Positions 8,045-61,472 of a stretch of DNA of 64,000 bases are shown here, piece after piece. Where the stretch lies: NCBI GenBank assembly GCA_045648925.1, contig JAZROY010000004.1, forward strand, positions 74,913-138,912, written 5' to 3'. Each line of letters begins with the position of its first letter. Positions within the stretch are counted from its first letter, which is position 1. Source of the stretch: Candidatus Enterousia sp. (GTDB taxonomy: Bacteria; Pseudomonadota; Alphaproteobacteria; Rs-D84). The notes beneath the pieces are model-generated. The model was not told where the DNA came from. It did not search any database and saw only the letters and a list, made by a program, of their open reading frames with translations. Both the position numbers and the translations under genes were made by a program.

Positions 8045-9100
8045 ATGTGGGGTAATATGAAATATAAATTGCCTGTATTTTGTGGGTTATTTTTTTTATC
8101 TGTTGTAACTGCGACTTTTGCAGAACGCGGTTCTTTTGATTTGGATAGATGGGAAAAAGTTATGCAAGATATTCGCACCAAGGCAACCGCGGAAAACATA
8201 GATAAATCTGTTATTGATGCAACATTAAAATCACCTGTGTTTATTCCTGGAATTGTAAAATCAGACAGAAATCAGTCCGAATTTAAATTGACACTGGAAC
8301 AATATTTAAATCGCACGGTAAGTGATGCCCGCGTAAGTAACGGAAAGAAGCAACGCGCAACATATCCAACATTGCTATCAAATGTTGAAAACAAATTTGG
8401 TATTCCACGCAATGTGACATTGGCTTTTTGGGGAATGGAATCTAATTATGGAGAGGTTAAATCCAAATATCAATTAACCAATGCGTTTATAACTTTGATT
8501 TACGAAGGGCGGCGCGAAGAATTCTTTTCAAAACAATTAATCGCGTTGATGAAAATCGCAGACAAAAACAAATTATCAATAAATAATATTTATGGTTCTT
8601 GGGCGGGCGCAATGGGACATTTTCAATTTATACCAACAACCTTGGCGCAATATGGTATGGACGGTAACAATGATGGACGCGTTGATATTATTCACAGTGT
8701 TGGTGATGCGATGTATAGTGCCGGAAATTATTTGAACAAATTGGGATGGAACCAAGACGAACCAATTGTTCATCGTGTTATTTTGCCGGCTGATTTCGAC
8801 AGGGATTTAATGGGTGGCGATGCAAAGAAAACCTTTACAGAATGGGCAAAACTGGGTGTGATGAATATGGACGGAACACCGGTGGATGCAAATGATACAG
8901 TTGTTGGTTTGGTTGCAGATGTAAAGAATATTGATAAAATGTTGGAAGCCCAAGCAGATGAAAACCTGGATTCAGATGTTGCGCCAGCCCCTGTGATAAA
9001 GGCATATTTAACATACCCTAATTTTTACAGAATAAAAAAATGGAACAATTCATCTTGGTATGCAATTGCAATTGCCGAGTTGTCTGATAAATTAAAGTAA
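8045..9100 (+). CDS. Lytic murein transglycosylase, MltB/Slt35 family
   Basis: WGMESNYG and GAMGHFQFIPTTLAQYGMDGNNDGRVDI match the MltB signature region. Signal peptide starts at the second ATG (8057). Confidence 0.8.
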   Translation: MWGNMKYKLPVFCGLFFLSVVTATFAERGSFDLDRWEKVMQDIRTKATAENIDKSVIDATLKSPVFIPGIVKSDRNQSEFKLTLEQYLNRTVSDARVSNGKKQRATYPTLLSNVENKFGIPRNVTLAFWGMESNYGEVKSKYQLTNAFITLIYEGRREEFFSKQLIALMKIADKNKLSINNIYGSWAGAMGHFQFIPTTLAQYGMDGNNDGRVDIIHSVGDAMYSAGNYLNKLGWNQDEPIVHRVILPADFDRDLMGGDAKKTFTEWAKLGVMNMDGTPVDANDTVVGLVADVKNIDKMLEAQADENLDSDVAPAPVIKAYLTYPNFYRIKKWNNSSWYAIAIAELSDKLK

Positions 9101-9211
9101 AAAACTTCCCCCCTATACCAATTTTTCCAAAAGTCCAGAAGAAATAAAAACAATTGATTGTGAAGTTTTTCTTTGGTAATATTACCTGTATCATTATAAA
9201 GGAATTATGTT

Positions 9212-10171
9212 ATGGCTATAAAAGTTCGTGATTTCGAAGTGCGATTAACTCGCAACAAAGAAGAAAGAAAAATGGTGCGCCAGTTGCGTTACGAAGTTTT
9301 CTGTTTGGAAGAAGGTGCATCTGCAACCGAAGAACAAAAAAACCTGGGCGAAGAATATGATGCCTATGATACATATGCCGATTATATGGCGGTTTTCCAC
9401 GATGGTAAAATTGTTGGAACATATCGTATTATTGACAAAGATGCTGCCGACAAAATGGGTGGTTTTTACACAGAAAGCGAATTTAATTTATCCAAAATAA
9501 AAAAGGTAAAGGGCAATATTGCAGAAATGTCACGCGCCTGTGTAAAAAAAGAATATCGCGATGACGGTTTGGTTATTCGTTTGCTTTGGGCGGGATTATG
9601 CGAATATGTCGTAAAGCGCAAAGTTGTTCTTTTATTCGGTGTTCCATCTTTTGTTGGAACAAATCCTGCACAATCGGCCCAGGCATTATCTTATCTTTAT
9701 TACAACTGTTTATCACCTTCGCATTTATTGGCAACTGTGTTAAAAGAAAACCTGGACCCAAGTGTTGATCCGCGTATGACCCAGATGAATATTTTGCCAC
9801 GCGCTTTTGTTAACGAAGACGAAGCAAGAAAACAAATGACACCTTTGATTAAGGGGTATTTGCGCCTGGGGGCGACATTTGGACGCGGGGTGTTTATTGA
9901 TAAACCTTTTGGAACATATGATGTGTTTGTTTTGGTTCAAACGAAAAAAATTGACAAAGTATTCCAAAAACATTTTGCTGGTTCTGAAACTGCTTTTGAT
10001 GAATTCGATATCAAAGAAGGGCCATTACATCTTTTGACCCGCATAATTATGTCACCGTTTACCGGCACCGCTAAGGCAATAAGGGCATTTGGCGAATTGT
10101 TTATGCGTGAAGATGCAGACGATATCGAATACATTGACAAAGAAGAAACCGAAGAAGAGAATAACCAATAA
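9212..10171 (+). CDS. olsB: Ornithine lipid N-acyltransferase OlsB-like (GNAT/hemolysin-like acyltransferase)
   Basis: About 319 aa. N-terminus LRYEVFCLEEGA..YDAYDTYADYMAVFHDGKIVGTYRII resembles the OlsB family. Immediately followed (1-nt overlap) by a PlsC-type acyltransferase, the olsBA arrangement. Confidence 0.65.
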   Translation: MAIKVRDFEVRLTRNKEERKMVRQLRYEVFCLEEGASATEEQKNLGEEYDAYDTYADYMAVFHDGKIVGTYRIIDKDAADKMGGFYTESEFNLSKIKKVKGNIAEMSRACVKKEYRDDGLVIRLLWAGLCEYVVKRKVVLLFGVPSFVGTNPAQSAQALSYLYYNCLSPSHLLATVLKENLDPSVDPRMTQMNILPRAFVNEDEARKQMTPLIKGYLRLGATFGRGVFIDKPFGTYDVFVLVQTKKIDKVFQKHFAGSETAFDEFDIKEGPLHLLTRIIMSPFTGTAKAIRAFGELFMREDADDIEYIDKEETEEENNQ

Positions 10172-57107: not shown

Positions 57108-57405
57108 ACAAATCTCCTTTTTAAATATATCATTTTAATCCTAGATAAAAAAGCAGCCCAAGGCAAGTGAAAATAAGATTATCATATCGCCTTAAATCAT
57201 ATTCAAATCACATAAAAAATAGGAATATTTCACCTTATCTAATTCTTCTATTTATACCTATTTCTGTTGATTTTCCGGCATTTTAACATTTTTTATTATC
57301 CACCTTTTACCCCTTTTTATATACCTGATTCATAAAAACAGGATAAAATAAAATTCCCAAAAATGAATATAATGAATATTGTCACAAGAAAAAAAGGAGT
57401 ACAAT

Positions 57406-57633
57406 ATGACACACCAAGAAGTATGGCAAGCAATTGATAATTTTGCATTTCAACAACAAATGTCTTGTTCTGGACTGGCAAGATTTTCTGGTCTGGACGC
57501 AACAACTTTTAACAAAAGTAAGCGGTGGTCAAAATATGGTCAACCAAGATGGCCTTCGACAGCCAGTATCGCAAAGATATTGAATTCTACTGGGAAAACG
57601 TTGGACGATTTTGTAAAATGTATTTATGAATAA
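57406..57633 (+). CDS. Ner/Nlp-like HTH DNA-binding protein (HTH_35 family)
   Basis: ATG 57406 with aaaaaggagtacaatATG. LARFSGLDATTFNKSKR...PRWPSTASIAKIL parallels Mu Ner/Nlp LSR..GLs.sTLaNAL.R.WPKGE.IIA.AL. Confidence 0.5.
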   Translation: MTHQEVWQAIDNFAFQQQMSCSGLARFSGLDATTFNKSKRWSKYGQPRWPSTASIAKILNSTGKTLDDFVKCIYE

Positions 57634-57676: not shown

Positions 57677-58579
57677 ATGTCAACGTTAAAAACAAAGATA
57701 CTTTTATTAAAAGAGTTATTGGCACTTAAAGAGGTTGTTGATAAGGGCAGTATTCAAATCGCCGCCAACGAGAACGGGATTAAAAATTCTAATTTGTCCC
57801 AACTGATTAAAGATTTGGAAGACAGATTTAATACTAAACTTATCAACAGAAATTTTGATGGAAGCCAACCAACAAATTCCGCCCAGATTATATATAATGA
57901 TATATGCGCCATAGAAGAATTACTGAATAAAATCGCAGAAAATTTTGTAGACATGGATGCTTTGTCTGGTTCTGTATCTGTTTGGACCGAAGAAGGTTTA
58001 TTTGGCAGTTTTATCATGAAAGATTTGTCTGAATTTTATGGAAAATATCCAAAACTTCGTTTGGAATTGTTGATGCGAAAAGACCCAGATATATCTAATA
58101 CAGATATTTTAATTATTAAACCAAAGGTGCACCCAAACATTCATGGAACGGTTTTATTTAAATTTAAAACACATTTAAAGTTTTATACCAGTAAAAAATA
58201 TTTGGAAACACACGGAACCCCACAAAACATAAACGATTTGTTGGAAAATCATAACTTGTGTATGGTTTATCGTTATATGAATCTCCCAGAATGTCAAAGT
58301 ATGATAAAACGCGCAAAACATTTAAATACTATTTCTGATTCATTGGCTTTGATATATAGACTGGTTAATGATGGTGATGGTATCACAGTTTTTCCATCAT
58401 GGTTTGAAGATAGCAGTAAAAATCTTGTTTGTTTAAACAATCTAGATTTTGAACACGAAATGGAAACTCAGTGTATGTGCAGGACCGAAATCGCTGAATC
58501 ACCAAAAATTCGTGCCTTTGTTGATTTCTTTATAAGTTTTTGCTCTGGGCATAATGTGCCTATTGATATTTATTATTGA
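57677..58579 (+). CDS. LysR-family transcriptional regulator
   Basis: N-terminal LysR HTH (LKTKILLLKELLALKEVVDKGSIQIAANENGIKNSNLSQLIKDLEDRFNTKLINR). C-terminal substrate-binding fold. Confidence 0.8.
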   Translation: MSTLKTKILLLKELLALKEVVDKGSIQIAANENGIKNSNLSQLIKDLEDRFNTKLINRNFDGSQPTNSAQIIYNDICAIEELLNKIAENFVDMDALSGSVSVWTEEGLFGSFIMKDLSEFYGKYPKLRLELLMRKDPDISNTDILIIKPKVHPNIHGTVLFKFKTHLKFYTSKKYLETHGTPQNINDLLENHNLCMVYRYMNLPECQSMIKRAKHLNTISDSLALIYRLVNDGDGITVFPSWFEDSSKNLVCLNNLDFEHEMETQCMCRTEIAESPKIRAFVDFFISFCSGHNVPIDIYY

Positions 58580-58584
58580 TTAAC

Positions 58585-58622
58585 CTTGGTTGTGGTACAT
58601 GGGCGAAACACGAGTTAGAATA
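58585..58622. repeat. Right-arm-type cassette boundary repeat cttggttgtggtacatgggcgaaacacgagttagaata
   Basis: About 30/39 identical to 59368-59406. Inverted relative to 59280-59305 and 60071-60097. Confidence 0.7.
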
Positions 58623-58715
58623 CTTTTTTATTGCTTTTTATACGAATTGTTGTTATTAATATCAACATAAAATCGGGAGTGTGTGAGATTTTGTTCAAAT
58701 GAAAGGGAAGTTCGA

Positions 58716-59237
58716 ATGCAAAAAACAATTTCTTACGAGCCGTTTTGTGTTGATGGTTATTTGATTGTACCACAAGAAGAAAAGAAAATTACATCTGTTT
58801 ATAATATCATTGGTGGTGCACCCATTATGAAAGCACATGTAGAAATTGGTGCGTTGCCTAAACAGGTTTCTTTCCGGCGTAATTTTGATAGACAGATATT
58901 TGATATATTGAATAAAAGCGGTTTATATAGAAGTGAAAAATCAGTAAGAAATAGTTTTTTTACACCGTTTGAAAATGGTAAATTGAGCAGTAAATTTGAT
59001 TCTTCGATTTTGCTTAGATTGACGACATCCCATTTCGTTCAATATTTGTTAAATTCAAAAAAAGGTGAAATTATTGGAATGTATTTTGAAGATTGGTCGT
59101 GCGGTTTGCTTGAAAGTGCAGTATTCCAACTAAATAATGGAAGAACAGTCGGGGGAATAAAAGAATTTGAAGAAGAGATTCAGAAATCGGCAGAATGGCA
59201 AAGAAAAGTAAAAGAATTTAATGAAAAAATCAAATAA
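58716..59237 (+). CDS. Hypothetical cytoplasmic protein (cassette gene 1)
   Basis: 173 aa from ATG 58716 (Shine-Dalgarno aagggaag). Followed by the terminator ccgccattaaatcggcgg plus T-run (59246-59273). No recognised motif. Confidence 0.45.
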   Translation: MQKTISYEPFCVDGYLIVPQEEKKITSVYNIIGGAPIMKAHVEIGALPKQVSFRRNFDRQIFDILNKSGLYRSEKSVRNSFFTPFENGKLSSKFDSSILLRLTTSHFVQYLLNSKKGEIIGMYFEDWSCGLLESAVFQLNNGRTVGGIKEFEEEIQKSAEWQRKVKEFNEKIK

Positions 59238-59279
59238 TTAGGATGCCGCCATTAAATCGGCGGTATTTTTTTATATCTT

Positions 59280-59394
59280 GCCCACACACCACAACCACAT
59301 TGAATAAAAATATTAAATTTTTTTGTTGTTTGTGGGCAAAATTTATTCGTTTCAAAGCCAGTTGAATCTTGGTTGTGGTGCGTGGGCAAAACGC
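59280..59394. repeat. About 115-bp imperfect palindrome between the two cassette genes (attC/MITE-like)
   Basis: Left arm gcccacacaccacaaccaca-ttgaat. AT-rich spacer containing a partial third copy (tgtgggcaaaa). Right arm ttgaat-cttggttgtggtgcgtgggc. The arms are reverse complements over about 18/19 nt. Confidence 0.7.
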
Positions 59395-59458
59395 AAGCTG
59401 AACAATTTGACTTTATAATAAAAATTATAATACACTTGAAATATACAAGGGTGAAAGT

Positions 59459-60067
59459 ATGGTTAAATTTATTAAAACTTATGCATTGGAAATTTTTACA
59501 GTAATATCTATGGCGATGTTGCTGGTTGGTGGATTGATTGGTGATTTGTCAGTTATTCAAAAATTTACTTTGGTTTATATATTTTTATTTGTTCTGCATG
59601 AATGGGAAGAAATGAAATATCCAGGTGGCTTTGCAGATTCTATTGCAAAAATGTTGGGTATAAAATTAAACAATAATATGAAACGTGCCAGTCGTATTCC
59701 AACCAGTATATTATTGCTAACATTTACTATTACACCGTTTGTTTTGCATGAATATCCAATAACAATATTACCAATTGCATGGCTGGGATTGTTTGAAGGT
59801 TTTGTTCATATATTTACAATCCGTTTGTTTAAATACCCAAGATTTTATTCTCCTGGGTTTGTAACTGCAGAAATACAGGCTGTATTTACGATATTTGTTT
59901 TTACATATTTTGTAAGAAATGATATTGTATCATGTGGTGAATTTTTGATTGGTTTTATGGTTATGTTTGTGTGCTTTGTAATTATGCAAAAGAGCCTGAC
60001 AGCAATGATAGGGTATAAATACAGCAATGTTTTCAAAGTAATAAAAAAACAATTTGCTAAGAAATAA
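59459..60067 (+). CDS. HXXEE-domain integral membrane protein (cassette gene 2)
   Basis: VLHEWEE motif, several TM segments, 202 aa. Confidence 0.55.
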   Translation: MVKFIKTYALEIFTVISMAMLLVGGLIGDLSVIQKFTLVYIFLFVLHEWEEMKYPGGFADSIAKMLGIKLNNNMKRASRIPTSILLLTFTITPFVLHEYPITILPIAWLGLFEGFVHIFTIRLFKYPRFYSPGFVTAEIQAVFTIFVFTYFVRNDIVSCGEFLIGFMVMFVCFVIMQKSLTAMIGYKYSNVFKVIKKQFAKK

Positions 60068-60070
60068 TTG

Positions 60071-60106
60071 TTTCACCCACACCCCATAACCACTTTGAAT
60101 AAAAAG
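60071..60106. repeat. Left-arm-type boundary repeat tttcacccacaccccataaccactttgaataaaaag
   Basis: Matches 59280-59310 (cccacacc.c..aaccac.ttgaataaaaa). Confidence 0.65.
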
Positions 60107-60359
60107 ACCTGTTAGAGCAGTTTTTTATTAGTTTTATAATATTATTGCTGGTTCGAATGTTTTTAAAGTGTTATAAGCAGTTCGAAAGTGTGGATAACGA
60201 CATAAAAATTCAAATCCAAACTTTCGAACTCGGTGAAACACTTGCTTTTCTAACACAAAACCGCTCTTTCGGGCAGGATTGCCTTCAACCCTTTTGGTTT
60301 TTCATGTTTGGCGATTTCTGGATCGCTTATTTCATCTATTCTTTGTGAACCTGCGCGAG

Positions 60360-60664
60360 CTAGCCATAACTTAAACGGTTCTGCTTTTTTGATGGTATTG
60401 ATTGAACCAGGCGCAAAATTTGTTCCACGTCACCAACATCAGTATTATAAAACTTACCATCAGATGATCGCATTTTCAGTTGTCCGATTTTTTCGGACAA
60501 CTCACTACCTTCTTGTTTAAATTTAGTTTTTAAATTGCTCCAATATTTTCTAGGTCTATCTGAACCTGTCAAAGCTGCAATAATATCAACGATGGAAAAA
60601 TACCACTATCCCAAAGTGTCCGGATGTCTTTGCTATCAAATAATTTAACCTGTGTATCTGGCAT
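60360..60664 (-). pseudogene. Frameshifted Bro-N/KilA-N-type phage antirepressor N-terminal domain remnant
   Basis: Frame 1: MPDTQVKLFDSKDIRTLWDSGIFPSLILLQL*. Frame -1 continues ..SIVDIIAALTGSDRPRKYWSNLKTKFKQEGSELSEKIGQLKMRSSDGKFYNTDVGDVEQILRLVQSIPS. The two halves join if one A is added at the A5 run at 60596-60600. Confidence 0.5.
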
Positions 60665-60667
60665 AAT

Positions 60668-61135
60668 TTAATCCTTTATATCAGTATCATTGTTTGCCTT
60701 TTGCCATTCTTCATATTCTGGGTTTGGTATATTCGCTGGTATAAAAGACAGTTTTCGTACTGTTTTTCGGCTGCCAAATGCGTTCAAATAAGAATATGTT
60801 CCTTTTGATACAGCACATTTATCTATCAACATTAATTTCATATCATCATACAAATTATCTGGACCAATCGTGCCAAATTCTTTTTTATCAACGGCAAACA
60901 AATTACCATTATCTTGCAAAGTTGCATAGCCAGAACTGCAACGTTTTTCCCAGTTAGGATAAGAAGTATCACAATAATACAATTTAACCAAAACAACATC
61001 ATCCGCAACTTGTGCTATTTTTATCATACGAGATGTAAAACACTGAGGGTCTCGTATAGTTTCTGCCGGCTTTTGCGGTGTAAAAAGACCAGCACAAGAA
61101 CATAATAATAAATTTATAAATATTATTTTTTTCAT
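60668..61135 (-). CDS. Putative lipoprotein (unknown function)
   Basis: MKKIIFINLLLCSCAGLF, signal peptide with lipobox-like LCSC. Start at the internal ATG. Confidence 0.45.
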   Translation of the reverse strand: MKKIIFINLLLCSCAGLFTPQKPAETIRDPQCFTSRMIKIAQVADDVVLVKLYYCDTSYPNWEKRCSSGYATLQDNGNLFAVDKKEFGTIGPDNLYDDMKLMLIDKCAVSKGTYSYLNAFGSRKTVRKLSFIPANIPNPEYEEWQKANNDTDIKD

Positions 61136-61398
61136 ATTCCATCCTTTGGTTCTCATTTATGTTAACCAAGAAACTAGGTATTTGCAATATCAATTATTAG
61201 TACTTTACATAAATTCTCTGGAATGCGCACGAGACCTTGATAAACAATAACCAACCGCTGGGCAAAAACTCTATTAAAAATATCCGTTTTTGCACGGTTG
61301 CTAATTGTTCATCTGCGTATTCGCCATGCGCTTCGCTCTGGCGTATCCGTGCGCCCAGGAATAAATAAAAACACCCAAAAGGGTGTTTTTGTTTATTC

Positions 61399-61472
61399 TG
61401 GTTGGAGCGCACGGATTCGAACCATGATAAAGAGAACCAAAATCTCTTGTCCTACCATTAGACGACGCTCCA
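61399..61472 (-). tRNA. tRNA-Gln (anticodon TTG), CCA encoded
   Basis: Manual fold. Acceptor TGGAGCG/CGCTCCA, anticodon stem AGAGA/TCTCT with loop TTTTGGT, T-arm CATGG-TTCGAAT-CCGTG, discriminator A plus CCA. Confidence 0.85.

Follow-up and report, generated by a model that had tools for sequence, protein, structure and literature searches.

Inverted 23-bp cores bracket single-gene cassettes beside tRNA-Gln in Candidatus Enterousia: an apparently undescribed, integron-like system

Integrons have the tyrosine recombinase IntI and an attI site at the head of the array, and CALINs are arrays without IntI, although related genomes have IntI. Integron cassettes are mostly promoterless and co-oriented, and their attC sites are conserved in structure, not in sequence, with ends reading R'' RYYYAAC and then R' GTTRRRY (5'-3'), an imperfect stem, extrahelical bases and an unpaired central spacer. 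In the plasmid-borne pdif modules of Acinetobacter, genes lie between inverted XerC/D sites in varied contexts and the enzyme is encoded by the host. Elements flanked by attachment sites but without an integrase are covered by the CIME concept (PMC5704250, PMC6323972), and mobile insertion cassettes without a transposase have been documented (PMC4337579, PMC3913671).

A stretch of 64,000 nt from Candidatus Enterousia sp. (assembly GCA_045648925.1, contig JAZROY010000004.1, positions 74,913–138,912, forward strand), referred to here as the window, was analysed. Two of its genes are bracketed by four copies of a 23-nt core (consensus TGGTTGTGGTGTGTGGGCGAAAC) in the order → gene ← → gene ←. An 18-nt core pattern with up to three mismatches gave four matches in the window versus 0.09 expected from shuffles, and no copy was found outside the cassette locus within the 64 kb. 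With a probability of roughly 0.55, genes 1 and 2 are lineage-specific small mobile cassettes that accumulate 3' of tRNA-Gln in Rs-D84/Candidatus Enterousia. The features of the locus are:

57677–58579, + strand: LysR-family regulator gene (Pfam HTH_1 and LysR_substrate)
58587–58609, + strand: core copy R1, TGGTTGTGGTACATGGGCGAAAC, three differences from the family consensus; promoter-proximal end of cassette 1
58716–59237, + strand: cargo gene 1, 173 aa (from the ORF list)
59240–59269, + strand: terminator-like hairpin of gene 1, within the cassette (11-pair stem, then a T run)
59275–59297, − strand: core copy L1, distal end of cassette 1; gene strand ATCTTGCCCACACACCACAACCA
59298–59369, no strand: inter-cassette spacer, 72 nt, with an L-type flank start (cattgaat...), a decayed core-like piece (59323–59345) and a tRNA-type flank end (..caaagccagttgaatct)
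59370–59392, + strand: core copy R2, promoter-proximal end of cassette 2; homology to locus L019 begins at 59369
59459–60067, + strand: cargo gene 2, 202-aa membrane protein, weak HXXEE match
60070–60092, − strand: core copy L2, distal end of cassette 2, three differences from the consensus; homology to locus L068 stops exactly at 60092
60093–60260, no strand: cross-species conserved block 3' of L-type cores (12-locus alignment, motif map, inverted repeat)
60290–60660, − strand: phage-type gene remnant (ORF 60360–60572 matches the first third only of phrog_15286)
60668–61156, − strand: predicted lipoprotein gene, 162 aa, without family match, inside the inserted segment
61210–61398, no strand: conserved flank block B, 92–95% identical across species, above backbone genes
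61399–61472, − strand: tRNA-Gln(UUG), 3' end TGGTTGGAGCGCACGG on the + strand

A preliminary description of this DNA had placed two genes between inverted repeats with a palindrome between them, and all of these elements were found, with coordinates within a few bases. Its repeat unit of about 26 bp held as an inverted repeat but not in length, the conserved unit being the 23-nt core with its sharp outer edge. Gene 1, called unknown there, gave no match in Pfam, PHROG or NCBIfam, and its proposed terminator corresponds to the hairpin listed above. Gene 2 had been named an HXXEE membrane protein; a match to Pfam HXXEE is present but weak (E 0.0011, 20.1 bits, under the 25-bit cut-off). The ttgaat motifs beside the arms are real, as is a degenerate third copy in the spacer (59323–59341). 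Exact-protein look-ups of the LysR, gene 1 and gene 2 products returned no record, and Rfam at the gathering threshold reported four tRNAs and nothing else in the whole window.

The LysR gene is conserved chromosomal backbone bordering the variable region and lies outside the cassettes. Its homologues are found at 82–98% identity in many Alphaproteobacteria MAGs, and homology to related strains on this side ends at 58583. LysR was also considered as part of the system and rejected, there being no LysR at tRNA-Gln(CUG) arrays or in P0133 strains; a small GIY-YIG gene near many arrays was likewise set aside, being missing from the window. R1 begins 7 nt past the LysR stop codon, at the exact start of the homologous cassette in L022, L120 and L153. 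L153 has an identical L1, its flank diverging directly past CCA, and the same 72-nt spacer is found upstream of the cassette slot in L068 and L152–L154.

On the other side, the block at 60093–60260 holds three TTCGAA motifs (60150, 60179, 60218) and an inverted repeat with 30-nt arms, and in L019 it moves with the cassette up to 60238; we interpret it as a putative arm of the attachment region. The phage-type remnant lies within the segment missing from empty-site strains. Block B starts with a decayed tRNA-Gln-like copy (ctctggaatgcgcacgag..ttgataaacaataaccaa); at its other end are an inverted piece of tRNA (atccgtgcgc) and, abutting the tRNA 3' end, a terminator hairpin. This flank is also found upstream of R-type cores in L047 and L131. 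The preliminary description had missed that the array is anchored on the tRNA-Gln at 61399–61472 and that the repeat resembles the tRNA 3' end.

The arms between the two cassettes (59278–59297 and 59370–59389) are 95% complementary across 20 nt and 72 nt apart, and as ssDNA the 131 nt from 59270 to 59400 adopt an extended hairpin fold (−26 kcal/mol, z = −4.2). This strong hairpin, the layout of an ORF plus a palindrome, and cargo functions like those of integron cassettes are what the locus would share with a true integron array that has no integrase of its own, with the palindrome at 59275–59392 serving as attC. The ends of the palindrome are without RYYYAAC and GTTRRRY boxes: it reads 5'-..GCCCACACACCACAACCA ... 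TGGTTGTGGTGCGTGGGC..-3', and the family consensus has GTTTCGC at the 5' end and GCGAAAC at the 3' end, the reverse of attC with 5/7 matches. The stem is paired at 19 of 20 positions, with one mismatch and without the bulged bases of attC, and the spacer runs from 72 to several hundred nt across the family and includes conserved blocks. Promoter-like motifs are frequent, both orientations occur, and the anchor is a tRNA gene instead of attI.

Recombinases were searched for by phmmer in all ORFs of the window and of the first 38 repeat-bearing loci. The queries were XerD, a resolvase and the catalytic domain of lambda Int, and the sole match was a serine recombinase in L060. No IntI-like tyrosine recombinase was found in either set with the XerD and lambda Int queries, and no recombinase query matched any ORF of the window, in agreement with the preliminary description, which had seen no integrase there. 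It had also observed that the core does not carry the canonical GTTRRRY, and the inner ends GCGAAAC/GTTTCGC, arranged opposite to attC, agree. Its suggestion of an integron-type array is not supported, as the canonical attC R boxes are absent and no IntI-like enzyme was detected in these loci. An integron array of the CALIN kind is largely refuted by this evidence and scarcely credible here.

A scan for the core in other genomes returned about 105 unique cores in 60 loci, and every one of these loci comes from an Alphaproteobacteria MAG of gut or rumen origin (Candidatus Enterousia, order Rs-D84). Of the 119 matches in the genome scan, about 80 fell within coding sequence of unrelated taxa, often rich in GC, and were set aside as chance matches; an estimated 140 or so of these were expected. 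The family counts are slight undercounts, as the fuzzy-regex scans missed R1 of the window. A core scan of viral contigs gave no match, blastn of 58560–60300 against plasmids and phages gave none, and the core sequence was not found in a full-text search of the literature.

Across the 105 copies, core positions 1–18 are 88–100% conserved and conservation ends abruptly at the outer edge, beyond which the flank is variable. Among species with 70–85% identity between their genes, the 23 bp hardly vary. They have no internal dyad symmetry, a feature typical of simple recombinase sites. A REP/BIME element was rejected on the ground that the core itself is not palindromic, a DNA-uptake sequence on the ground that it occurs at one locus only in 64 kb, and a XerC/D dif-like site on both sequence and architecture.

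Nearly always, the cores form convergent pairs located 3' of a tRNA-Gln gene and enclosing highly varied cargo; in 32 such pairs the enclosed DNA measures 415–1820 bp. The cargo includes subtilase, EEP nuclease, LRR, HD, RNase T, methyltransferase and nucleotidyltransferase types, as well as S51 peptidase, glutathione peroxidase, GNAT, P-loop kinase and transporters. Relative to the end types, it may be encoded on one strand or the other. A sigma-70-like -35/-10 pair is present just inside the core at 17/47 promoter-proximal ends, and in a minority of cassettes the promoter end is on the tRNA side. Spacers between cassettes measure 72 to several hundred nt, some with conserved blocks. A repeat confined to this locus, and a locus identical in all relatives, would by its own criteria have counted against the preliminary description; neither is the case, since many further loci carry the repeat with differing cargo and close strains differ here. 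Its proposal of discrete exchangeable cassettes bounded by a recombination-type repeat is borne out by those other loci.

Most loci have a tRNA-Gln gene (UUG or CUG) adjoining the array, and one MAG carries arrays at both isoacceptor genes (L002, L046). The outer core hexamer TGGTTG equals the CCA end of tRNA-Gln, and the rest of the core resembles a diverged acceptor and T-stem strand of the tRNA; contiguous identity is limited to the 6 nt of TGGTTG, plus scattered matches. The outer-flank families found at tRNA-Gln 3' ends are those found at cores, always joined immediately before TGGTTG, with counts at tRNA ends and cores of 11/14, 4/5, 4/8, 3/2 and 2/6. The L-type flank (TTCAAWG) stands beside 37 cores and no tRNA. 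R-type cores point the same way as the tRNA end, the identity being unusually short and an inverted copy being present too. In L004, 16 nt from the tRNA end are joined to core in a chimeric site. Other elements occur in the same tRNA in L141 and L010, with a 19-nt displaced fragment, and an island in L060 ends CTCCAACCA followed by a tRNA-type flank and carries the serine recombinase. The shared hexamer is too short for homologous recombination, and together with the shared flank families it points to site-specific recombination at the junction. The 3' end of tRNA-Gln is probably the primary attachment site.

Empty and occupied sites were both observed. In L142–L150 the flank ..ccggttgaatttt is joined to TGGTTGGAGCG-tRNA directly after LysR, and in L037 the same ..ccggttgaatttt is followed by core, cargo, core and arm and then the tRNA. 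Strains with the empty site, whose backbone is 93–96% identical, have LysR, 78 nt and tRNA-Gln, where the window has 2.8 kb. The window does not represent a clean insertion, a point against the mobile-cassette reading: R1 comes right after the LysR stop codon, with the ancestral flank of 78 nt missing. The insertion relative to empty strains (about 2.8 kb, 58584–61395) comprises more than the two cassettes, which the preliminary description had not noticed.

Cassettes have also been transferred laterally. In both L019 and L068 the HXXEE cassette is 97.6% identical to that of the window, against about 75% for the single backbone gene common to the window and L068 (L019 has no backbone gene in common with the window for comparison). 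The gene-1 cassette is 97.9% identical in L153 (58586–59310) and 89.6% identical in L120 (58586–59304), where the backbone is at 68–79%. Both were found between unrelated flanks with only the two 23-bp cores in common, as a comparison of the window with L153 shows for gene 1 and one with L019 and L068 shows for HXXEE. Cargo has been replaced as well, strains with identical MarR sharing flank and core and then carrying different cargo.

In these MarR strains the variable cargo is flanked on either side by identical stretches long enough for exchange, so that homologous replacement in conserved flanks might account for the turnover with no dedicated enzyme, as in 'minimal mobile elements' or capsule-locus switching, and the cores would be kept for some other reason, for instance as a protein-binding or RNA-level signal. 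The varying homology breakpoints (59273; 59369, the R-core edge; 60092, the L-core edge; about 60238) fit such exchange, as does the lack of a recombinase nearby. In some comparisons cores diverge more than cargo: between the window and L153 the R-core differs at 5/23 positions though the gene-1 cargo is 98% identical, which, like the shifting breakpoints, also counts against the mobile-cassette reading. Homologous replacement does not account for cassettes set between flanks that share only the 23-bp cores, nor for flank exchange between tRNA-Gln ends and cores with six contiguous bases in common, and it leaves the mimicry of the tRNA 3' end, the inversion around every cargo and the near-invariance of the 23 bp unexplained. 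We regard it as unlikely.

The unit common to all three copies of the HXXEE cassette runs exactly from core to core. Such a unit would be expected of non-autonomous transposons with the cores as TIRs (5'-TGG...CCA-3'), moved by the transposase of an IS elsewhere and inserting preferentially at tRNA-Gln flanks or existing ends. The near-perfect inversion and sharp outer edge of the cores and the free orientation of cargo relative to the flanks agree with this, and TG...CA-type termini are typical of DDE transposons. No consistent target-site duplication was seen at any cassette, however; the bases beyond the two cores of a pair are not repeated, and only a TTGAA motif recurs there, at unequal distances (-4 vs +2) and as part of the conserved flank families. 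The outer flanks fall into the few families common to tRNA-Gln ends instead of being varied target DNA, and an end flanked by TTCAAWG that is never at tRNAs is an asymmetry not expected of symmetric ends. The copies are all at tRNA-Gln loci and not dispersed, plasmids and phages gave no match, and no transposase-bearing copy was seen at the repeat-bearing loci examined, where the recombinase queries included no DDE transposase. For the MITE-bounded modules offered in the preliminary description as an alternative, neither target-site duplications nor, at these loci or among viral contigs, plasmids and phages, a cognate transposase was found, and transposition of this kind is distinctly improbable.

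The only candidate enzyme, which we treat strictly as a lead, is a serine invertase of the Mpi family conserved in the lineage. The 199-aa protein matches the NCBIfam 'master DNA invertase Mpi family' at E 8e-80 and 267 bits (cut-off 272) and is 86–96% identical in >120 clusters; where a source is named, as it is for a few of them, it is an Alphaproteobacteria MAG. In L060 the gene adjoins a cassette array, and in L162 its distance from the tRNA-Gln 3' end is 3.7 kb. The invertase is absent from the window and its other contexts are without cores; an Mpi-like recombinase of cluster P0312 has plasmid- or phage-like contexts, also without cores.

Since Mpi acts on many dispersed sites (PMC4747536), an Mpi-like master invertase supplied in trans might simply flip the DNA between inverted cores or TTCGAA motifs and so switch expression of the cargo or its neighbours. 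Every cargo is indeed bracketed by inverted repeats, the recombinase is conserved in the lineage and near arrays or tRNA-Gln at the two loci named, and the minority of cassettes with the promoter end toward the tRNA could be inverted forms. Between any given pair of flanks a cassette was only ever seen in a single orientation, and the gene-1, HXXEE and nucleotidyltransferase cassettes have one orientation relative to the tRNA in every locus. The promoter-like motifs, where seen, are inside the segment, so that inversion would not switch the cargo, and the core is without the dyad symmetry of hix-type sites. Inversion alone cannot give empty sites, different cargo or lateral transfer, and the invertase contexts described above also speak against it. 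A purely invertible segment is highly improbable.

For mobile cassettes accumulating 3' of tRNA-Gln, the following mechanism may be proposed. The core would be the asymmetric site of a site-specific recombinase supplied in trans, with the conserved part of the site on the cargo side and exchange at or next to the TGGTTG edge. A circular cassette would consist of a core, often a promoter, the cargo, an inverted core and a conserved arm of 70–350 bp that ends in a tRNA-type terminator flank. It would integrate at the tRNA-Gln 3' end, the primary chromosomal site, joining the old tRNA flank to the new core and leaving the tRNA intact. Arrays would be built by repeated integration, and recombination of core with core could excise, replace or reshuffle cassettes. 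As no recombinase gene was found in the window or, apart from L060, beside cassettes of the first 38 loci, the enzyme and the circular intermediate are hypothetical, as is the exact crossover point. A simple integrase model does not require inverted repeats, which leaves the role of the second core unexplained, and the missing dyad symmetry of the core weighs against the proposal as well. Our fullest version of the mechanism is tentative and falls short of even odds: an independent analogue of the integron, capturing genes in the chromosomes of genome-reduced gut Alphaproteobacteria, in which the tRNA-Gln 3' end acts as attI and the tRNA-mimicking 23-bp core as attC, and a host recombinase acting in trans, possibly of the Mpi family, inserts, excises and swaps single-gene cassettes, many of them with promoter-like motifs.

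Genomes of very small size are expected to be poor in mobile DNA. Those of Rs-D84/Enterousia are below about 1 Mb (PMC12306168). If the proposal is true, a fast-turning cassette platform would be the main route to accessory functions for these symbionts, and a second, independent solution to the problem solved by integrons. The platform offers a defined 23-bp site and a recombinase to seek, and the core could be used as a probe to retrieve the flexible gene pool of the lineage from metagenomes and to track strain-level variation.

Compared with known systems, the arrays share with the Mpi systems of Bacteroides fragilis a gut host and dispersed short inverted repeats, there served by one serine recombinase in trans (PMC4747536), and an Mpi-family homologue is conserved in the lineage studied here. 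Mpi flips promoter segments of about 200 bp, whereas here whole genes of variable identity are bracketed, and gain, loss and lateral transfer were seen and inversion was not. Like MICs and cargo MITEs, the cassettes have short inverted terminal repeats around passenger genes and are transposase-free (PMC4337579, PMC3913671); unlike them, they have no target-site duplications and no cognate IS was found, and they show a strict association with tRNA-Gln and conserved asymmetric outer flanks. With tRNA islands and CIMEs the arrays share a position at the 3' end of a tRNA gene left intact, tandem build-up there, border repeats resembling that 3' end and, as in CIMEs, the lack of an integrase inside. 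The cassettes differ in measuring 0.7–2 kb with one gene, against 10–100 kb, in having about 6 nt of tRNA identity plus scattered matches, in the inverted copies that bracket the cargo, and in that no integrase-bearing parent element was found. The pdif modules are also gene modules bounded by inverted short recombination sites, with the enzyme encoded elsewhere, but the core has no similarity to dif or the XerD arm and no 11-6-11 architecture, and the arrays are chromosomal and tRNA-linked.

In comparison with integrons and CALINs, differences lie in the inverted pairs of 23-bp cores around the cargo, without R/L boxes or bulged bases, in the frequent promoter-like motifs, the either orientation of cargo, the tRNA anchor and the lack of a detected IntI (window and 38 loci), and in the conservation of primary sequence in place of structure. 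Shared with them are arrays in which cassettes of varied function, mostly single genes, gather at a single chromosomal location, a palindrome separating consecutive genes, content that varies among close strains, cassettes without a recombinase of their own and a fixed primary site, the part played by attI in integrons falling here to the tRNA-Gln 3' end. The arrays appear to be an integron-like, tRNA-anchored cassette system that has apparently gone undescribed.

Two genes in the window were each bracketed by inverted copies of a 23-nt repeat (the core), in the order core, gene 1, inverted core, 72 nt, core, gene 2, inverted core, and the region read as in the preliminary description of two genes with inverted repeats and a central palindrome. 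R-type cores form the promoter-proximal end of a cassette and L-type cores the distal end. The locus comprised:

ending at 58579, LysR-type regulator gene (Pfam), upstream of the cassettes
58587-58609, + strand, core copy R1 (sequence match)
58716-59237, gene 1
59275-59297, - strand, core copy, distal end of gene 1 (sequence match)
59370-59392, + strand, core copy, promoter-proximal end of gene 2 (sequence match)
59459-60067, gene 2
60070-60092, - strand, core copy, distal end of gene 2 (sequence match)
60668-61156, predicted lipoprotein gene
61210-61398, block B, upstream of tRNA-Gln
61399-61472, - strand, tRNA-Gln(UUG), downstream of the cassettes

An 18-nt core pattern with up to three mismatches was matched four times in the 64 kb window (0.09 expected), and none of the matches lay outside this locus. 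Folded as single-stranded DNA, the two middle cores and their spacer formed a long hairpin (-26 kcal/mol, z = -4.2). Gene 1 (173 aa) had zero matches in Pfam, PHROGs and NCBIfam, in line with its earlier description as unknown; gene 2, described as an HXXEE membrane protein, did match Pfam HXXEE, but below threshold. R1 adjoins the LysR stop, the ancestral flank being missing there. LysR (57677-58579) and an 84-aa protein without family match (57379-57633) form a conserved pair edging the variable region in many species, missing in the P0133 strains and at tRNA-Gln(CUG) arrays.

Between the distal core of gene 2 and the tRNA, a phage-type gene remnant (60290-60660, - strand) carried a 70-aa truncated ORF (60360-60572) matching positions 37-101 of the 274-position phrog_15286 (E 2e-16), which suggests that a larger element formerly occupied this tRNA-Gln. 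Block B, at 92-95% identity across species more conserved than backbone genes, begins with a decayed tRNA-Gln-like copy (61210-61260; ctctggaatgcgcacgag..ttgataaacaataaccaa) and also contains 10 nt of the tRNA T/acceptor strand in inverted orientation (61345-61354, atccgtgcgc).

One genome per bacterial species was scanned for TGGTTGTGGTRYRTGGGC, giving at least 119 loci. About 80 of those listed were isolated matches within coding DNA of unrelated taxa, estimated to be about the chance expectation; the remaining 38 listed belonged without exception to Alphaproteobacteria MAGs of gut or rumen origin (Candidatus Enterousia, RUG and RGIG bins; G+C 32-44%), and in all 38 the match extended to the full 23-nt consensus TGGTTGTGGTGTGTGGGCGAAAC, often with zero mismatches. 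Scanning metagenomes yielded a further 21 such loci. The genome-wide search proposed earlier thus found the core at many other loci with different cargo. No match was found in viral contigs, phage genomes or plasmids, nor in a full-text search of a library of papers. Genomes of the host order, Rs-D84, are below ~1 Mb (PMC12306168).

Among at least 105 unique copies, core positions 1-18 were 88-100% conserved and conservation ended abruptly at the outer edge. Adjacent cores were mostly convergent, with at least 32 pairs enclosing 415-1820 bp and one or two ORFs of widely varying type: subtilase, EEP nuclease or phosphatase, BspA-type LRR protein, HD protein, RNase T-like exonuclease, methyltransferase, nucleotidyltransferase, S51 peptidase, glutathione peroxidase, GNAT acetyltransferase, P-loop kinase and many without family assignment. 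Larger cargo near the tRNA included a Fic-domain protein (L152 6338-7333; L numbers denote the compared loci) and a putative ATPase of 596 aa (L060 638-2428); the tRNA-Gln hot spot may also collect toxin- or defence-type genes.

Inward of the core, most promoter-proximal ends carried GCGAG then TTGnnn, followed 16-18 nt further by a -10-like hexamer in 17 of 47 such ends; no conserved sequence was found inward of the distal core. On the gene strand the distal core reads ...CCACAACCA, and its outer flank, starting CWTTGAAY, is alignable between species over ~165 nt with three TTCGAA motifs (window 60093-60260). The TTCGAA-centred motif AAACTTTCGAACT lies at 60150-60162, 60179-60191 and 60218-60230, an arrangement recurring in more than 10 loci, two copies forming an inverted repeat with 30-nt arms. 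Outside the promoter-proximal core there are few flank families, mostly a terminator-like hairpin then TTGAATTTT, TTGTTAACTT or TTTGTTTATTC. Two small inserts sit exactly at the outer edges of some cores, marking this edge as a hot spot: a 31-nt insert (cgaagtcRcggcgKagcRaagcgaagacgga; L068 6107-6137, L050 3529-3559, L060 3139-3169) and a ~63-nt palindromic spacer bounded by CAACCA...TGGTTG (L004 690-756, L044, L112).

The conserved site, in inverted pairs around cargo, is anchored on the tRNA-Gln 3' end. In most loci ARAGORN placed a tRNA-Gln (UUG or CUG) next to the arrays, its 3' end always toward the cassettes, and one MAG (L002 and L046) carried an array at each of its two isoacceptor genes. 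Written in the direction of the promoter-proximal core, this 3' end is TGGTTGGRGCGCACGGATTCGAACC; it has in common with the core the outer hexamer TGGTTG (CCA end, discriminator and first acceptor bases) and several positions beyond, and intermediates occur among core variants, including TGGTTGGGGCGCACGGGCGAAAC in L004. tRNA ends and cores exchange flanks at TGGTTG: the families next to real tRNA-Gln 3' ends also adjoin cores, with the junction at the same nucleotide.

Flank families, with numbers at tRNA-Gln ends and at cores
hairpin + TTGAATTTT: 11 tRNA-Gln ends, 14 cores
hairpin + TTGTTAACTT: 4 tRNA-Gln ends, 5 cores
GCAGACGCGAAGTG: 4 tRNA-Gln ends, 8 cores
TTTTGTTTATTC: 3 tRNA-Gln ends, 2 cores
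CGTTTGAATAT: 2 tRNA-Gln ends, 6 cores
TTCAAWG (L-type): 0 tRNA-Gln ends, 37 cores

The 70 nt preceding the window's tRNA (61329-61398) matched those preceding a core in L047 at 93% identity. DNA once beside a tRNA end now lies beside a core, or the reverse. Because tRNA end and core share only six contiguous bases, the exchange points to site-specific rather than homologous recombination.

Other units were seen at the same tRNA. A displaced piece of the tRNA-Gln 3' end, 19 nt long (TGGTTGGAGCGCACGGATT) and continuing into unrelated DNA (L141 6981-7005, L010 1500-1518), suggests a second kind of element integrating with crossover in the T-loop. A stand-alone gene for an 81-aa GIY-YIG nuclease domain (L112 4323-4568; L162 5418-5663; also L095, L111, L049, L062, L080 and L088), with 90-100% identity among species, was located ~100 nt downstream of a core or of tRNA-Gln, preceded in each setting by the palindromic flank ..GCAGACGCGAAGTG, and may itself be mobile.

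Empty and occupied alleles, cargo replacement and lateral transfer were all found. In empty-site contigs (LysR 98% and backbone DNA 93-96% identical to the window's), the LysR stop is followed by 78 nt ending ..ccggcaaaaacgccggttgaatttt, TGGTTGGAGCG of tRNA-Gln, and MarR; homology ends at 58583 and restarts at 61396, so that the window has 2.8 kb (58584-61395) which they lack. L037 carries the same hairpin-TTGAATTTT flank, core, methyltransferase gene, inverted core, conserved arm bearing a new hairpin, and tRNA, which would be the expected product of integration at the tRNA end. Contigs with identical MarR (95% to the window's) had in common the left flank ..caaagccRgttgaatat, the core and the tRNA side, and differed in the cargo directly after the core: methyltransferase plus Fic (L152), gene-1 cassette (L153), sodium-solute transporter (L154) or an NT5C-like gene (L158). 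In L153, whose GT8 gene is 99% identical to the window's, the gene-1 cassette (97.9% identical) fills the slot held by HXXEE in the window, where gene 1 lies one slot further out, beside LysR. The strain comparison proposed earlier therefore found a locus that differs among relatives.

The HXXEE cassette was 97.6% identical in L019 (window 59369-60238) and L068 (59273-60092); the sole backbone gene common to window and L068 was 75% identical, and L019, having none in common, allowed no such comparison. The gene-1 cassette in L120 was 89.6% identical, against 68-79% for the backbone. Judged by these identities, the cassettes have been laterally transferred. In some comparisons R-cores diverged more than cargo.

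The gene-plus-palindrome layout had suggested integron-type cassettes, perhaps a CALIN-like array, or MITE-bounded modules. A canonical integron was rejected: as noted earlier, the core lacks the canonical attC GTTRRRY; R boxes are either missing or reversed, the stem pairs almost perfectly, and conservation lies in sequence, not in structure. Promoter-like motifs are frequent in the cassettes, which lie in either orientation, and a search of the window and the first 38 loci found no IntI-like protein. Nor is a transposon-type origin obvious: target duplications and transposase-bearing copies were not found in the repeat-bearing loci examined, and the outer flanks are conserved and asymmetric. 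Copy distribution and sequence excluded a DNA-uptake sequence, REP element or dif site.

The neighbouring recombinase whose search the preliminary description proposed was not found near the cassettes of the window or the first 38 loci, apart from a single lead in L060, where an island ending in CTCCAACCA, joined to a tRNA-type flank at the same junction as cores, encodes a 199-aa serine recombinase (L060 27-626). The NCBIfam model for the 'master DNA invertase Mpi family' scored it at E 8e-80 and 267 bits (cut-off 272). At 86-96% identity there are more than 120 clusters, the few with a source name being Alphaproteobacteria MAGs, a spread resembling that of LysR. The L060 gene adjoins one cassette array, and the L162 copy (9001-9600) lies 3.7 kb from a tRNA-Gln 3' end. 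It is only a lead, as candidate cassette enzyme. Against it, the gene is absent from the window, another cluster (P0312) occurs in plasmid- or phage-like contexts without cores, no cassette inversion was seen among the loci compared, and the core has no dyad symmetry. The TTCGAA motif AAACTTTCGAAC resembles, at 8/10 positions, what we take to be the Mpi repeat consensus, ARACGTWCGT, which is a lead only. In Bacteroides fragilis, Mpi works in trans at 13 dispersed sites (PMC4747536).

We infer that the core serves as an asymmetric site of recombination, with 17 conserved nt on the cargo side and a variable outer side, and with exchange at or near TGGTTG. In a circular cassette the core, in many cases with a promoter, would precede the cargo and the inverted core, and a 70-350 bp arm would follow, closing with a tRNA-type terminator flank; such a cassette would integrate at the tRNA end, restoring the tRNA, and repeated integration would build arrays with the newest cassette closest to the tRNA. 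Core-by-core recombination would excise or swap units, for example window 59273-60092, common to L068, which spans successive L-type cores as direct repeats. Cassette 1 would then be 58587-59369, its arm shortened to 72 nt, and cassette 2 would run from 59370 to ~61398, ending in block B, its arm interrupted by the phage-gene remnant and the lipoprotein gene.

We give this site-specific cassette model slightly better than even odds (roughly 0.55). The preliminary finding is real, and of more interest than could be seen from the sequence alone: single-gene cassettes that can be swapped form an integron-like array anchored on tRNA-Gln, and the array is specific to a gut lineage with reduced genomes. 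Its recombination-type site is well defined. Compared with integron cassettes and with tRNA-targeted integrase-less islets, the array is best viewed as a variant of both.
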